Position numbers and translations under genes: made by a program. From Escherichia phage BUCT789, in sequence record PQ999132.1: DNA of 40,771 bases; one strand, given 5' to 3'. The notes under the pieces were generated by a model, which saw only the letters and a list, made by a program, of their open reading frames with translations, was not told where the DNA came from and ran no database searches. Positions 5,884 to 34,304 of the stretch are shown in pieces (position 1 is the stretch's first letter; each line of letters begins with the position of its first letter).

Positions 5884-6083
5884 CCAGCATCCTCTTTATC
5901 TGGGTACTGTCCGCAGGCCAGATGCAACTGGCGGCAGCAGAAACGTTTTATTCGATGGAGGCGTGCCAGTCAGCGGCACGCGCCGCAGAGAACGCGCACT
6001 TCCTGTTTCAGGGCGACAAGCCCAACGATTCAGAGGTACGCGCTATCTGCTCACCTAAGCGACTTGGTAAACAGGAGAGATAA
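5880..6083 (+). CDS. small protein with N-terminal hydrophobic segment
   Basis: ATG 5880 overlaps upstream stop (ATGA); N-terminus MTSILFIWVLSAG. Confidence 0.5.
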   Translation: MTSILFIWVLSAGQMQLAAAETFYSMEACQSAARAAENAHFLFQGDKPNDSEVRAICSPKRLGKQER

Positions 6084-6376
6084 TGTCTCTTGCAACTGAC
6101 ATCCTGAAACGAAGCGGCCTTGCGCCGCTGTCACCGAGAGCGAAGACACGTATACACAAGCGTCGCCGTAACGTGCTGTACCCAGAGATACAAGAACGGC
6201 GTAAAGCTATCCGCGCCTGTGGATTCCAGAACGGAAAGGCCGTGAATCTCGGTGAGTTTAAAACACAGGAACGCGCAGCTATCGCTAATCGGCTATTTAA
6301 TTACTGGAAATCGCTGGGGTACGATGATATTCCGACGAAACCGCAGAGACGGCAATACATCTGGAGACACAAATAA
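6083..6376 (+). CDS. basic hypothetical protein (97 aa)
   Basis: ORF directly after the previous stop; K/R-rich. Confidence 0.55.
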   Translation: MSLATDILKRSGLAPLSPRAKTRIHKRRRNVLYPEIQERRKAIRACGFQNGKAVNLGEFKTQERAAIANRLFNYWKSLGYDDIPTKPQRRQYIWRHK

Positions 6377-7025: not shown

Positions 7026-7488
7026 TGGATTGCATTTTACCGCTGCGTTCGAGGGATTCCGCGGAACTGCGTATCGTGCTACGCCTAACGAGAAGTACCT
7101 TACTATAGGCTACGGGCACTATGGGCCTGACGTAACCCCGGGTAAGACCATCACACCGGGACAGGGCTTGCTGTTACTGAATCGCGATATGGCTAAGGCT
7201 GTAGCTGCTGTTGACGCAGCAGCACACCATTCACTGACACAGGCACAGTTCGATGCAGTGTGCGACCTGGTATATAACGCAGGTGCTGGTGTGATTGGGG
7301 TTACTACCGGAACCGGTAAGGCGCTACATAGCGGTGATATTTCGACGCTGCGGGCTAAACTGGCGCTGTTCATCAACCAGAACGGCAAACCGTTACTCGG
7401 CCTGCGTCGCCGTACCGCAGGCCGCCTGGCGCTGTTCGATGGCAAGCCGTGGCAAGAGGCTGAGGCTATCGGGAGGGCTGTTAAATGA
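6988..7488 (+). CDS. endolysin, GH24 lysozyme-like muramidase
   Basis: FEGFRGTAYR...LTIGYGH matches the T4/lambda lysozyme catalytic region; no N-terminal signal-anchor. Confidence 0.8.
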   Translation: MEDISVSRNISDNGLHFTAAFEGFRGTAYRATPNEKYLTIGYGHYGPDVTPGKTITPGQGLLLLNRDMAKAVAAVDAAAHHSLTQAQFDAVCDLVYNAGAGVIGVTTGTGKALHSGDISTLRAKLALFINQNGKPLLGLRRRTAGRLALFDGKPWQEAEAIGRAVK

Positions 7489-7615
7489 TGGACGAATATG
7501 AAGGCGTTTAGTAAACTTATCCCTACGCTGTTTGTGCTTGCATACTAAGCCCCGGTAAACCCGAAGCAGCAGCCCAAGCGGTGGAGACTGCGTAGGGTTC
7601 AGGGGCTTATGACCG

Positions 7616-7645
7616 AAACCCGGACCGCGAATCCGGGTTTTATTT
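7616..7645 (+). terminator. rho-independent terminator
   Basis: cccgg/ccggg stem followed by ttttatttt. Confidence 0.6.
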
Positions 7646-7651
7646 TACCAA

Positions 7652-7680
7652 TTGACACCTAAGACTAATCCGACGATACT
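7652..7680 (+). promoter_or_regulatory. sigma70-like promoter, TTGACA-N17-GATACT
   Basis: TTGACA 7652-7657, 17-nt spacer, GATACT 7675-7680; only about 45 nt upstream of a terminator. Confidence 0.4.
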
Positions 7681-7686
7681 TAAATC

Positions 7687-7750
7687 ACCTCCTGTTCCAT
7701 CCCTCTGCTCTCCAGTTTTATCCCGGCCCTGACCCAGCCGGGATTTTTTT
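7687..7750 (+). ncRNA. candidate small RNA (about 60-65 nt) between promoter and terminator
   Basis: No ORF; contains AUCACCUCCU resembling the 16S rRNA 3' end, then terminator hairpin. Confidence 0.3.
7720..7750 (+). terminator. rho-independent terminator
   Basis: atcccggc/gccgggat stem followed by a 7-T tract. Confidence 0.65.
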
Positions 7751-7772: not shown

Positions 7773-7801
7773 TTGACTATTACCATCGACCCTATTATAT
7801 T
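7773..7801 (+). promoter_or_regulatory. sigma70-like promoter, TTGACT-N17-TATATT
   Basis: TTGACT 7773-7778, exact 17-nt spacer, TATATT 7796-7801; drives the 7835-9589 small-gene block. Confidence 0.55.
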
Positions 7802-7834
7802 TACTCCATCGACAACGAGAACGGAGTATAGAAG

Positions 7835-7984
7835 ATGAAAATCACAGATATCGAAGCATTCAAAGACGCACAACTGATGGCACGTATCGCCGTTAGTAAC
7901 CTTAGTAGCAGTATCCCCGCTGACGCGTTCTGGTTCGCAGCGATGCAGACCCTGAAAGCAGCTTATGCAGGAGAGAAGAAATGA
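7835..7984 (+). CDS. small hypothetical protein (49 aa)
   Basis: ATG 7835 after GGAG; ends GEKK with GGAGAGAAGAAATGA junction into the next gene. Confidence 0.45.
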   Translation: MKITDIEAFKDAQLMARIAVSNLSSSIPADAFWFAAMQTLKAAYAGEKK

Positions 7985-9589: not shown

Positions 9590-9691
9590 GACTACTAATC
9601 ATCCCCAACGCATGGGCTATCGCCGTAGCTAACGACCATTACGGCGGCGATGGTAAAAGAGCACCACGACACGGCCTATATAACTGATACA

Positions 9692-9714
9692 AGCCCTCTA
9701 CGGAGGGCTTTTCT
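9692..9714 (+). terminator. rho-independent terminator separating early and morphogenesis blocks
   Basis: agccctc-tacg-gagggct hairpin followed by tttt. Confidence 0.6.
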
Positions 9715-9808
9715 GTACATCCCGCCCAATCCCCTTATATAATCCCTTTAGACGCGTAGGGCGCGTCTGGTGCGCTCTGATGGTCAGACGCATATGCAAG
9801 GGGATTTT

Positions 9809-11612: not shown

Positions 11613-13106
11613 ATGGTTTCCGCAAACATTAACGCAGGGCAAGGGCAGAACGTTAAAACCCGCCACCGCCAGTACGAAGAGTATTTCCCTAAGTGGCAGA
11701 AGGTGCGACATGCGCTTTCTGGCGACCTGACATCGTATCTACGTGACGTCGGTAAGAATGAGCCGGACCCGGTTTACGGTCGCCAGCGTCAGGCTGAATA
11801 CGAAGCGGGGGCAATTTGCTACAACTTCACCAAGCGAACGCTTTCCGGCATGGTAGGCAGCGTAATGCGCAAAGACCCTGAGATGAATATTCCGTCTCAG
11901 ATGGAATACCTGACAACTAACTGCGATGGGTCTGGTGTCGGCCTGTGGCAGCACGCACAAGATACCCTGTATGAGATTGATGCCGTTGGTCGCGGTGGTT
12001 TGCTGGTGGACGCTCCCGCGGTAGAAGTCGCCACTATGGCGGAGCAAAACGAGGGCTTACTTAACCCGACAATCGCTTTCTACACCGCGGAGAACATCAT
12101 CAACTGGCGTCTTCAGCGCGTCGGTTCGGTCAATCGTGTGGTTATGGTCGTATTGCGCGAAGAATACGAGTACACCGACGGGACTGATGAGTTCAGCCCC
12201 AACTACGGCGAGCAATACCGCGTCCTTGATATTTTCGAAGGCCAGTATCGCCAGCGTCTGTACCGCTTTAACCAGAAAGGCGCACTGGTGGAAGGTGGCT
12301 ATATCGAAATATTCCCGAAACTCGGTAATATTCCGGTCGGGGTGATTCCGTTCACGTTCATCGGCGCGGGAAATAACGACTCAACCCCTGACGATGCCCC
12401 TTTGTTGCCGTTGGCTGAACTTAATATAGGGCACTTCCGTAACAGCGCAGACAATGAGGAGTCCAGCTTCGTTGTAGGCCAGCCAACTCTGTTCATCGCC
12501 CCTGGTGAGAACATGAGCATGGAGCAATGGAAAGAAGCTAACCCCCACGGCGTGCGCATGGGGTCGCGTTCGGGTCATAACATCGGCTACGGCGGCAATG
12601 CGTTTCTGGTCCAGGCAGGAGAGAACAACCTCGCCAAACAGAACATGCTGGATAAAGAGAACCAGGCAATCCAGATTGGTGCACAGCTTATTACCCCGAC
12701 GCAGCAAATCACCGCGGAATCGGCACGCCTGCAACGCGGCGCTGATACGTCTGTTATGGCAACAATCGCACGTAACGTAAGCATGGCGTATACCGATGCG
12801 CTGAAATGGGTTGCGGGGATGCTCGGACTTAGTGACGGTACTGAAATTGAGTTCAAACTGAATATGGAGTTCTTCCTGCAACCTATGACCGCCCAGGACC
12901 GCGCTCAGTGGATGGCGGATATTAACGCGGGCCTGTTACCGGCTACCGCTTACTATGCTGCGTTGCGTAAGGCGGGGGTAACTGACTGGACCGACGAGGA
13001 TATTCAGAATGCTATCGAAGATGCACCTCTGCCGTTAGGTGCTGCTTCTCAGGTAGCAGGAGAGATTCCGCAGTCGGCGCAGCAAAAAGACCCCACCCAG
13101 CAGTAA
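11613..13106 (+). CDS. portal protein
   Basis: 497 aa ORF directly after terminase and before the head morphogenesis gene. Confidence 0.8.
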   Translation: MVSANINAGQGQNVKTRHRQYEEYFPKWQKVRHALSGDLTSYLRDVGKNEPDPVYGRQRQAEYEAGAICYNFTKRTLSGMVGSVMRKDPEMNIPSQMEYLTTNCDGSGVGLWQHAQDTLYEIDAVGRGGLLVDAPAVEVATMAEQNEGLLNPTIAFYTAENIINWRLQRVGSVNRVVMVVLREEYEYTDGTDEFSPNYGEQYRVLDIFEGQYRQRLYRFNQKGALVEGGYIEIFPKLGNIPVGVIPFTFIGAGNNDSTPDDAPLLPLAELNIGHFRNSADNEESSFVVGQPTLFIAPGENMSMEQWKEANPHGVRMGSRSGHNIGYGGNAFLVQAGENNLAKQNMLDKENQAIQIGAQLITPTQQITAESARLQRGADTSVMATIARNVSMAYTDALKWVAGMLGLSDGTEIEFKLNMEFFLQPMTAQDRAQWMADINAGLLPATAYYAALRKAGVTDWTDEDIQNAIEDAPLPLGAASQVAGEIPQSAQQKDPTQQ

Positions 13107-20892: not shown

Positions 20893-20898
20893 AACTAA

Positions 20899-20918
20899 GG
20901 CCCCGAAAGGGGCCTTTT
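20899..20918. terminator. bidirectional rho-independent terminator
   Basis: ggcccc-gaaa-ggggcc with T-runs on both strands; identical 29-nt copy at 32709-32737. Confidence 0.7.
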
Positions 20919-32711: not shown

Positions 32712-32717
32712 AACTAA

Positions 32718-32737
32718 GGCCCCGAAAGGGGCCTTTT
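32718..32737. terminator. bidirectional rho-independent terminator
   Basis: ggcccc-gaaa-ggggcc with T-runs on both strands; ends both convergent operons. Confidence 0.7.
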
Positions 32738-32877: not shown

Positions 32878-34304
32878 TTCTTACCTCGTCTCTTCATGTA
32901 ATTAAGCAACTCTTCCTGTACAGATTTCTTCTCGTCCGTACGCGCGGCAACAACCTCATCCAGCGTGTCTTTGGCAACGATATGATAGAGGAACACTGGG
33001 CGCTCGTGGCCTGCCTGTTTCTGGCGGACCGGGCCTATACGCTCGACAACCTGCAAATAGTGCTCAAGGTTCCAGCCTTGCGAGATGAATGCCAGATGAT
33101 GTCCGCCGTCCTGTAAATTCAAACCATGACCGGCTGACGCAGGGTGGACACATAAGATTTCGATTTCCCCGCGGTTCCACGCTTCCATCTGCTTATTACC
33201 CTTGGCGCCTTTTGCAAACGCCTGTGCCTGCGGGAATCGCTTAAGGATGCGCTCCAGTTCATGCTTAAACTGATAAGCCACAAGCAACGGTGCGCCCTGT
33301 AACTCCTCAACGATAGACTCCAGCGCATCCAGTTTCGTGTCGTGCACTTTCTCCCAGTCTTTGGTTGCCTCACCGTCTGGCCCCGACACATATACGGCAC
33401 CGGAGGCAATCTGCAAACACTTTGACGTCTTCGCCGCCGCGTTAGCCGCTTCAACTTCTCCGCTCTCCAGTTCCGCGAATAACTTCTCCTCCATATCGAT
33501 GTACGCCTGACGCGCCTTCTTCGGCAGGTCGATTTCAACCGGAACAATAATCGGCGCTTCGCAACCGAACCACTCTGCGGCGTCAATAGTGAGACTGATG
33601 TCCTTCATCTTCTGGTGAATTTCATTATCCGCGCCAGGGCGCGCATGATACTCACGCGCCATCGCGGATTTGCCTTTCTGTACCGAGTTAAACCAGCGGT
33701 CGGTGAATGCGGTGTATGAAGAACCGAGCCGCTCGCCCGCGTCGATAAACCAGTTCTGACCCCACAGGTCCTTGAGTCCGTTTGGCGACGGTGTGCCCGT
33801 CAGGTTAATGAAACGCTTAACTTTACCGAACGCAACCTTGCTGAGGGCCTTAGCCCTTTTGCTACCACCTGAACGGCTGCGGAACGATTTCAGCTTCGTG
33901 CTCTCATCAGCAACAATAACCGTAAAAGGCCAGTCGTCTTTGCCGTAGTAGTCAATAAGCCATTCGATAACTTCGTAGTTCGTGCAAACCACGTTAGCAT
34001 CCGACTCCAGCGCCGCGATGCGGCGCTTCTCTGAACCAGTCGCATCGACGACACGCAGACAAGGGAAGTTCCAACGTGCCTGTTCCGCGGGCCACGTACC
34101 TGACGCAACACGTAAAGGGGCAAGAATTAACACTCGGTCGTCGTCATTAAGTTGCCCATTACGGAACAGTCGATTGAGAACCCACAACGTTGACCCCGAC
34201 TTGCCGCTGCCCATCGAAGCCCAAATATTACAGCGAGGGTGCCGCAGCATGAACGAAGTCATGAGCTTTTGGTACTCTCGACGGATAAATTTAGACATAA
34301 TCAA
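32874..34304 (-). CDS. SNF2-family (DEAD-like) helicase/ATPase
   Basis: 476 aa; Walker A GSGKSG, DExx-type VIVADEST, LTGTPSPN (SNF2 motif III), HGLNLQ. Confidence 0.8.
   Translation of the reverse strand: MIMSKFIRREYQKLMTSFMLRHPRCNIWASMGSGKSGSTLWVLNRLFRNGQLNDDDRVLILAPLRVASGTWPAEQARWNFPCLRVVDATGSEKRRIAALESDANVVCTNYEVIEWLIDYYGKDDWPFTVIVADESTKLKSFRSRSGGSKRAKALSKVAFGKVKRFINLTGTPSPNGLKDLWGQNWFIDAGERLGSSYTAFTDRWFNSVQKGKSAMAREYHARPGADNEIHQKMKDISLTIDAAEWFGCEAPIIVPVEIDLPKKARQAYIDMEEKLFAELESGEVEAANAAAKTSKCLQIASGAVYVSGPDGEATKDWEKVHDTKLDALESIVEELQGAPLLVAYQFKHELERILKRFPQAQAFAKGAKGNKQMEAWNRGEIEILCVHPASAGHGLNLQDGGHHLAFISQGWNLEHYLQVVERIGPVRQKQAGHERPVFLYHIVAKDTLDEVVAARTDEKKSVQEELLNYMKRRGKK

Follow-up and report, generated by a model that had tools for sequence, protein, structure and literature searches.

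Small RNAs (sRNAs) encoded by bacteriophages form a known class whose members include lambda OOP, P22 sar, P1/P7 c4, DicF, IpeX, and AgvB/AsxR (PMC12197685). Almost all of those characterized come from prophages, and sRNAs of virulent phages are barely known (PMC12197685). Recently, a lambda sRNA that acts on host replication was also reported (bioRxiv 10.1101/2024.10.31.621285). Known phage sRNAs are short and terminator-ended and act by pairing, often at ribosome-binding sites; nearly all belong to temperate phages or prophages and either lie antisense to an adjacent gene or act on defined targets. The locus described here, a promoter-to-terminator unit designated P1-T2, is a new candidate for this class. 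It was analysed within a 40,771-nt stretch of DNA from Escherichia phage BUCT789, referred to below as the window, and its features lie on the plus strand unless stated otherwise. The predicted P1-T2 RNA is likewise short and terminator-ended, but it belongs to a strictly virulent siphovirus group and has no cis-antisense partner. A literature search turned up neither sRNA studies nor transcript maps for the subfamily Guernseyvirinae, and nothing for MB78; the only Kagunavirus transcriptome paper found has gene-level resolution, and public records either leave the locus unannotated, place a spurious ORF there, or give just a predicted promoter and terminator.

In its build, the predicted RNA resembles the Hfq-type sRNAs with a 5′ seed (RybB, OmrA/B, MicC), with which it shares a sigma-70 promoter of its own, a length in the range of 60–70 nt, a conserved single-stranded 5′ end, and a U-rich stretch ahead of a GC-rich terminator hairpin that is followed by 7 or more U. 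The Hfq-binding 3′ module of enterobacterial sRNAs is said to have been described by Otaka in 2011 and Ishikawa in 2012. The phage RNA differs from these sRNAs in that it comes from a virulent phage and is without homology to host sRNAs or E. coli genomes. Another described arrangement is that of MicL (PMC4102768), a 3′-UTR-derived sRNA that is transcribed from a separate promoter where the upstream gene ends and uses the terminator of that gene. Similar to sRNAs of the MicL and DapZ type, P1 of most relatives overlaps or adjoins the endolysin stop codon, and T2 is shared with the lysis mRNA; in the source phage, by contrast, a 160-bp insert and a further terminator (T1) uncouple the RNA from the lysis mRNA.

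Covariance models gave no assignment to a known family. When the whole window was searched with Rfam at the gathering score and with ARAGORN, the locus had no match, and a permissive Rfam search yielded sub-threshold matches only, driven by the terminator. Models of RyhB, AgvB, sar, and GcvB scored 12–15 bits against thresholds of 42–56; the matches to sar, AgvB, and RyhB are at chance level (13–15 against 43–56). The best permissive match was to RF02278 (23.4 bits, where the gathering score is 50, with 23 model positions skipped), the Betaproteobacteria toxic small RNA, whose members, 57–92 nt long and terminator-ended, show toxicity upon cloning in E. coli (PMC4603805). The likeness consists of a UCUCC-type motif followed by a CCCGGCC...GGCCGGG hairpin and a U-tail, and both are small C/U-rich RNAs that could mask Shine-Dalgarno (SD) sequences. 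A pyrimidine-rich anti-SD-like motif was reportedly described in this toxic sRNA by Kimelman in 2012. However, the phage RNA is not a member of the family, and the hosts are unrelated.

Across 361 bases around P1-T2, the source phage shares 99.7% identity with Kagunavirus LM08P1/LM08P2 and with Escherichia phage Henuyfy11N, and 95–97% with K1G/K1ind phages. On sequence identity, it is therefore a Kagunavirus, that is, a virulent, K1G-like siphovirus in the subfamily Guernseyvirinae. P1-T2 lies between the endolysin gene (end at 7488) and a run of small genes ahead of the terminase and structural genes. Behind it, and part of the same conserved block, is P2 (TTGACT-N17-TATATT, 7773–7801), the promoter of the downstream small-gene operon, followed by a leader with a ribosome-binding site (GGAG; 7802–7834). 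Pairwise differences per site were 0.000 in the P2 hexamers and 0.257 in the P2 spacer, and the diversity of the leader was 0.097. The small genes 3′ of P2 encode a protein of a PHROG without assigned function, a DUF2737 protein, and a NinH-like protein; the first gene behind the common leader varies by phage (MKITD.., MSNV.., MNLQS.., MKRYQ.., or MAKQ..). A sharp mosaic boundary was observed at the ATG, with P2, leader, and ribosome-binding site kept up to the start codon (7773–7840; loci L002–L031). Also, the leader UACUCC (7802–7807) can pair with the first gene's ribosome-binding site, GGAGUA (7822–7827; −8.5 kcal/mol, z −2.6). The P2 transcript probably starts at about 7808 and would be without the UACUCC arm, so that the ribosome-binding site would be masked in upstream read-through transcripts only; this leader pairing is weaker in Jerseyvirus (UAGUUC).

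The initial annotation had described the promoter as TTGACA-N17-GATACT at 7652–7680, and this was borne out: the −35 hexamer (7652–7657), a 17-bp spacer (7658–7674), and the −10 hexamer (7675–7680) give a 10/12 match to the sigma-70 consensus. Such a match has little weight by itself, given that the window holds 9 matches of at least 10/12, compared with 5.5 ± 2.4 in simulated sequence of the same length; the weight rests on conservation. From GenBank and IMG/VR, 55 distinct versions of the block were collected by using patterns anchored on P1 or P2. TTGACA was invariant in 54 of the 55 versions (one has TTGACG) and GATACT in 54 (one has CATACT), counts that overstate statistical power in that they represent effectively only 3–5 independent lineages. 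The spacer served as an internal neutral control, and 16 of its 17 columns vary. Mean pairwise differences per site were 0.006 in each hexamer but rose to 0.264 across the spacer and 0.351 across the six positions of the discriminator. Moreover, lineage L047 retains TTGACA-17-CATACT, although its 17-bp spacer is unrelated and its discriminator is longer. The hexamers are thus kept while spacer and discriminator drift, as one would expect of a working sigma-70 promoter rather than of a chance match. A coding constraint on the hexamers was ruled out, since they lie 3′ of the endolysin stop codon in Jerseyvirus and 160 bp beyond it here. P1 thus appears to be under selection as a promoter, an independent one such as Hfq-type sRNAs have.

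From a 7-nt spacing rule and the position of the U-tract, we infer that a transcript from P1 would run from A7687 (ACCUCCUG...) to 7750, which would yield a small non-coding RNA of about 64 nt (7687–7750); the predicted lengths across versions are 62–71 nt. Conservation resumes at this predicted +1, beyond the hypervariable discriminator. In both the MFE and the centroid fold of the RNA, an unpaired 5′ arm of 33 nt leads into an 8-bp hairpin that is followed by a U tail, and the RNAs of five relatives adopt the same fold. In all lineages, the fold consists of an unpaired pyrimidine-rich arm, a U-rich stretch, a single hairpin, and U7–U14. The arm carries two conserved motifs. Motif 1, CUCCU (7689–7693, RNA positions +3 to +7), is the candidate seed and also the anti-SD-like core; it is present in 55/55 distinct Kagunavirus/Jerseyvirus modules, where it begins at RNA position +2 or +3 and is spaced 8–9 nt from the −10 hexamer (13 nt in one version). 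Motif 2, CAUCCCUCU (7698–7706), is the most conserved single-stranded stretch. It is exact in 50 of the 55 versions, the remaining 5 having single substitutions, and its diversity is 0.024, compared with 0.30–0.35 in the flanking linkers. Conserved and unpaired in both folds, as a seed would be, the two motifs are both lost in Cornellvirus.

The transcript would end at T2, an intrinsic terminator at 7720–7750, where the initial annotation had also located a strong terminator. T2 has the stem AUCCCGGC/GCCGGGAU (7720–7727/7737–7744), a 9-nt loop (CCUGACCCA), and a T7 run (7744–7750); its free energy is −13.8 kcal/mol (z −3.5), and 0 of 200 shuffles fold as well. A simple pattern scanner missed it, as its loop limit was 8 nt. 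The sequence UUUUA (7716–7720) lies ahead of T2, its last A being the first base of the stem. All 36 distinct RNAs have a GC-rich stem of 8–10 bp and U7–U14, preceded by UUUUA, UUUA, or UUUC. Across lineages, at least 4 compensatory pair changes were found in the stem: C-G to U-A in Jerseyvirus, which also has extra A-U pairs, and A-U/U-A to G-C/C-G as well as G-C to A-U in Cornellvirus.

No start codon lies within the predicted transcript (7687–7750), in agreement with the initial annotation, which had seen no ORF between promoter and terminator. The sole listed ORF (7652–7732; TTG start, 26 aa) begins at the −35 hexamer, and a small protein as the product of the locus was rejected, there being no conserved ORF across versions. 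Annotated ORFs of relatives are probably spurious as well: AG11_59A (L004 610–729) rests on an ATG unique to AG11, and Bas76_0074/0075 (L002 2666–2902) are minus-strand ORFs within the conserved non-coding block that are not themselves conserved. Antisense transcription was also rejected; the only minus-strand promoter-like site (7854–7825; 9/12) has its −35 within the variable first gene and a −10 that is degraded in relatives, and T2 in reverse is no terminator. Taken together, the hexamer conservation, the compensated terminator, and the lack of a conserved ORF suggest that the locus is, as the initial annotation had proposed, very probably a unit from promoter to terminator that encodes a small non-coding RNA where two operons meet, and that this unit is autonomous. 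That the unit is real and selected, and that it yields a discrete small RNA, likewise appears likely.

When the distribution of the unit was examined by blastn, about 444 phage records proved to contain the conserved block, among them 325 of Salmonella phages and about 110 of Escherichia/Kagunavirus phages. For most of them, the homologous region opens precisely at the first −35 base and ends at the start codon of the next gene; about 400 Kagunavirus/Jerseyvirus genomes have this −35 start, regardless of the endolysin upstream or the first gene downstream. Between the genera, at ~77% identity, the block is as well conserved as coding DNA (68–85%). Cornellvirus (FSL SP-031, TS6, sp9) and Enterobacter phage phiEap-2 have a homologous, diverged module at the same place, with a weak −35 in coding sequence, TATACT, AUUCCACCCAGCCAGC(C)UUU, a different hairpin, U8–10, and AUCU; CUCC is absent from these versions. 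What the whole subfamily has in common is thus a short unpaired arm, poor in G and rich in C, with a terminator at its end. Given that CUCCU is lost and the P1 −35 is weak in Cornellvirus and phiEap-2, the ancestral common feature may be just a C-rich 3′ UTR and a terminator. No comparable unit of promoter, C-rich arm, terminator, and promoter was found in 52 loci around terminase relatives (40–63% identity), and 5,426 E. coli genomes yielded neither a host homologue nor a prophage copy. Among 185,579 species genomes, true matches were confined to Jerseyvirus contaminant scaffolds. Three of these (22, 47, and 45; L070, L071, and L073) belong to Taishania pollutisoli CZZ-1 (Bacteroidota) and carry the Jerseyvirus module; two of the three are shorter than 1 kb, and phage contamination of the assembly is the most likely explanation.

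The second terminator that the initial annotation had noted just upstream was found at 7615–7646 (T1; stem GAAACCCGGA/UCCGGGUUUU, loop CCGCGAA, then AUUUU). Its hairpin (7615–7641) folds at −14.4 kcal/mol (z −3.2), and 0 of 200 shuffles fold as well. In the source phage, T1 closes the lysis operon. It lies inside a non-coding insert of ~160 bp (7489–7651) that reaches from the endolysin stop codon to P1; most relatives are without this insert, which is present only in a subset of Kagunavirus (K1G, Schulenburg, Bas76, and the source phage). The insert also contains a long imperfect hairpin (~7546–7609) and folds as a whole at −54.9 kcal/mol (z −2.0), and its T-run forms an AT-rich, UP-element-like flank upstream of P1. 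In most relatives, the endolysin stop codon lies inside the −35 hexamer of P1 or 2 nt before it, and T2 is the sole terminator behind the lysis genes. P1 and T2 are nevertheless intact in the source phage and some relatives, although T1 already terminates the lysis operon there. The late genes have a junction of their own at 9691–9743, in which a terminator (9691–9713) is directly followed by TGTACA-18-TATAAT before the small terminase gene, and P1 is therefore not needed for them. Given both the persistence of P1 and T2 behind T1 and this separate late junction, P1-T2 appears to be a self-contained mini-unit. TGTACA-18-TATAAT, with a perfect −10 and a weak −35, is likely a late promoter, and it possibly requires an activator. 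In this region (9691–9769), the terminator is the hairpin AGCCCTC-TACG-GAGGGCT with TTTTCTG, and another hairpin, AGACGCG-TAGGG-CGCGTCT, adjoins the GTG start of the small terminase gene.

The initial annotation had further pointed to a likeness between the start of the transcript and the anti-SD end of 16S rRNA. The sequence ATCACCTCCT (7684–7693) indeed matches, over all ten bases, the 3′ end of E. coli 16S rRNA, CACCUCCU plus AU; an exact 10-mer is expected by chance about 0.08 times per window. However, a start at A7687 drops AUC, leaving the RNA with only 7 nt of the 16S-like string, and the exact 10-mer occurs in Kagunavirus only. The Jerseyvirus RNA starts with GCUCCUGCUU (GCUCCUG), two Kagunavirus lineages (L027/L056) start with ACUCCUUG, and Cornellvirus and phiEap-2 relatives have AUUCCACCCAGCC, i.e., AUUCCA(C/U)(C/G)CAGCC, at the corresponding place. 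A conserved mimic of the 16S rRNA 3′ end was rejected, in that the CACCUCCU/CCUCC core is not kept among homologues.

The initial annotation had suggested that such an RNA could pair with SD sequences; target prediction within the phage genome gave no candidate. When both phage strands were scanned with duplexfold, the best duplex reached −33.9 kcal/mol, compared with −29.1 to −37.4 for 14 shuffled RNAs. This duplex, a 15-bp match in the helicase gene (33442–33481), was rejected as a target, being no better than those of the shuffled RNAs, and no orthologous site was found when the AG11 RNA was compared with the AG11 genome. Sites complementary to the 5′ 8-mer (CAGGAGGT) were not enriched in the phage genome (29, compared with 23 ± 5), and the P2 leader can form only 4–5 bp with the RNA.

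Our preferred reading, in which we place a little less than even confidence, is that P1-T2 would be an autonomous gene for a ~64-nt small non-coding RNA, conserved in Guernseyvirinae, with an Hfq-sRNA-like build and pairing with purine-rich sites. As near-consensus P1 should need no phage factor, host sigma-70 RNA polymerase would start at about A7687, and expression should therefore begin at the onset of infection; transcription would then stop at T2. The RNA would present a single-stranded, G-poor, C/U-rich 5′ arm, with CUCCU at its extreme 5′ end and CAUCCCUCU in mid-arm. Its U-rich stretch, single GC-rich hairpin, and run of at least 7 U have the architecture known for Hfq binding, and the RNA may depend on Hfq. 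Its motifs could pair with AGGAG or AGAGGGAUG-type purine-rich sequences, i.e., ribosome-binding regions; base pairing of this kind with SD-like sequences is the leading mechanism, though we put it forward as possible rather than probable. The targets would most probably be host mRNAs, whose translation or stability would be lowered during takeover.

Kagunavirus and Jerseyvirus are among the E. coli and Salmonella phages isolated most often, with uses in biocontrol and therapy, and a pyrimidine-rich RNA that is conserved and probably both early and abundant would make a candidate factor in host takeover or in timing. The interest of the locus is moderate, because virulent-phage sRNAs are rare and the unit is present in hundreds of applied phages. 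Should the RNA have no function, the locus would still be useful for annotation and engineering as a precisely defined terminator-promoter junction.

The main rival to an autonomous sRNA gene takes the short RNA to be a by-product of just such a conserved terminator-promoter junction, in which T2 would act as the lysis-operon terminator and a shield for P2, and P1 would be accessory. The value of the junction would then lie at the level of DNA or transcription: RNA polymerase held near P2, read-through that adds to P2 output, or a site for module recombination. We consider this possible but doubtful. The arrangement in most relatives, with the endolysin stop codon at the −35 hexamer and T2 alone behind the lysis genes, fits it, as does the nature of the block as a mosaic junction whose flanking genes differ on both sides. 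It is also in line with Cornellvirus, which retains the terminator and a C-rich stretch while P1 is only weak, and with the fruitless target search in the phage genome. On the other hand, a promoter placed before a strong terminator is a poor feed for an operon that has its own invariant promoter, and the P1 hexamers are retained even where the spacer has been replaced (L047). Neither the conserved islands in the unpaired arm, set between variable linkers, nor the persistence of P1 and T2 where T1 already ends the lysis operon is accounted for by a boundary function.

Two further explanations keep a role for the C/U-rich arm, and we regard each of them as unlikely. According to the first, the YC-rich arm would serve as a decoy or loading site for a protein, binding Rho in a rut-like manner or ribosomal protein S1. 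The sole feature common to all four lineages, Cornellvirus and phiEap-2 included, is indeed a composition (C-rich, G-poor, and unpaired) rather than a fixed sequence, and the phage genome offers no pairing target. However, the arm is short, at 20–33 nt, compared with roughly 70 nt for typical rut sites, and specific motifs beyond composition are invariant in Kagunavirus and Jerseyvirus. According to the second, the RNA could be a multi-site UCC/CUCC mask or sponge for GGA/GGAG elements, abundant from the first minute of infection, that would act on host ribosome-binding sites or on GGA-motif regulatory RNAs. If true, this would amount to RNA-only shut-off or redirection of host translation, tuned to the host genus by CCUCCUG in coliphages and GCUCCUG in Salmonella phages.

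Lower still in probability is an antitermination leader, either of the Q type, as in lambda PR′-6S RNA-tR′, or of the N/nut type, by which P1 transcripts would extend downstream later in infection. P1-T2 shares with the lambda unit a constitutive promoter, a nearby terminator, a short RNA, and a position next to the lysis genes, and such a pair ahead of a long rightward gene array recalls PR′/tR′. It differs in lying downstream, not upstream, of the lysis genes, in having neither a Q gene nor a sigma-dependent pause element, and in being followed by a second promoter directly after the terminator. A Q-type unit was rejected: no Q- or N-family protein was found in Pfam, PHROGs, or the annotations of relatives, no −10-like pause element (TANNNT) occurs in +1 to +30, and both P2, directly behind T2, and the 9691–9743 junction of the structural genes intervene. 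In the N/nut version, a boxA-like string (UGCUCUCC) and the T2 hairpin (loop CUGACCC) would recruit a phage protein. Although their stems differ, Kagunavirus, Jerseyvirus, and phage SP-031 do have the loop CU(G/A)ACCC in common, and the 97-aa protein encoded upstream has the basic stretch AKTRIHKRRRN. Nevertheless, the boxA-like string is weak, the hairpin is a terminator in its own right, TS6/sp9 (CGUGAC) and phiEap-2 (UCUCCAG) have other loops, and the basic stretch is not conserved in Jerseyvirus; an N/nut site was rejected as well. Finally, a chance constellation, with an inactive promoter-like sequence beside an ordinary terminator, would draw on the ~5.5 matches of at least 10/12 expected per window and is hardly credible in view of hexamer-specific conservation in 55 versions from two genera, with spacer and discriminator free to vary.

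Two other features of the window were recorded. The 97-aa protein (6083–6376) is conserved in 480 Guernseyvirinae records and belongs to PHROG 9632, without a Pfam match. It has an invariant N-terminus (MSLATDILK) and a C-terminal LGEFxTxxxAAxA reminiscent of AP2-type DNA-binding domains. Its stretch AKTRIHKRRRN resembles the arginine-rich motif of P22 N, and Jerseyvirus has an unrelated basic linker instead; the protein is a candidate regulator. In addition, a 20-bp palindromic terminator, AAGGCCCCGAAAGGGGCCTT, occurs twice (20897–20916 and 32716–32735), both times at a junction of convergent gene blocks. It reads as a terminator on both strands, and both copies match a single AG11 site (12688–12722).
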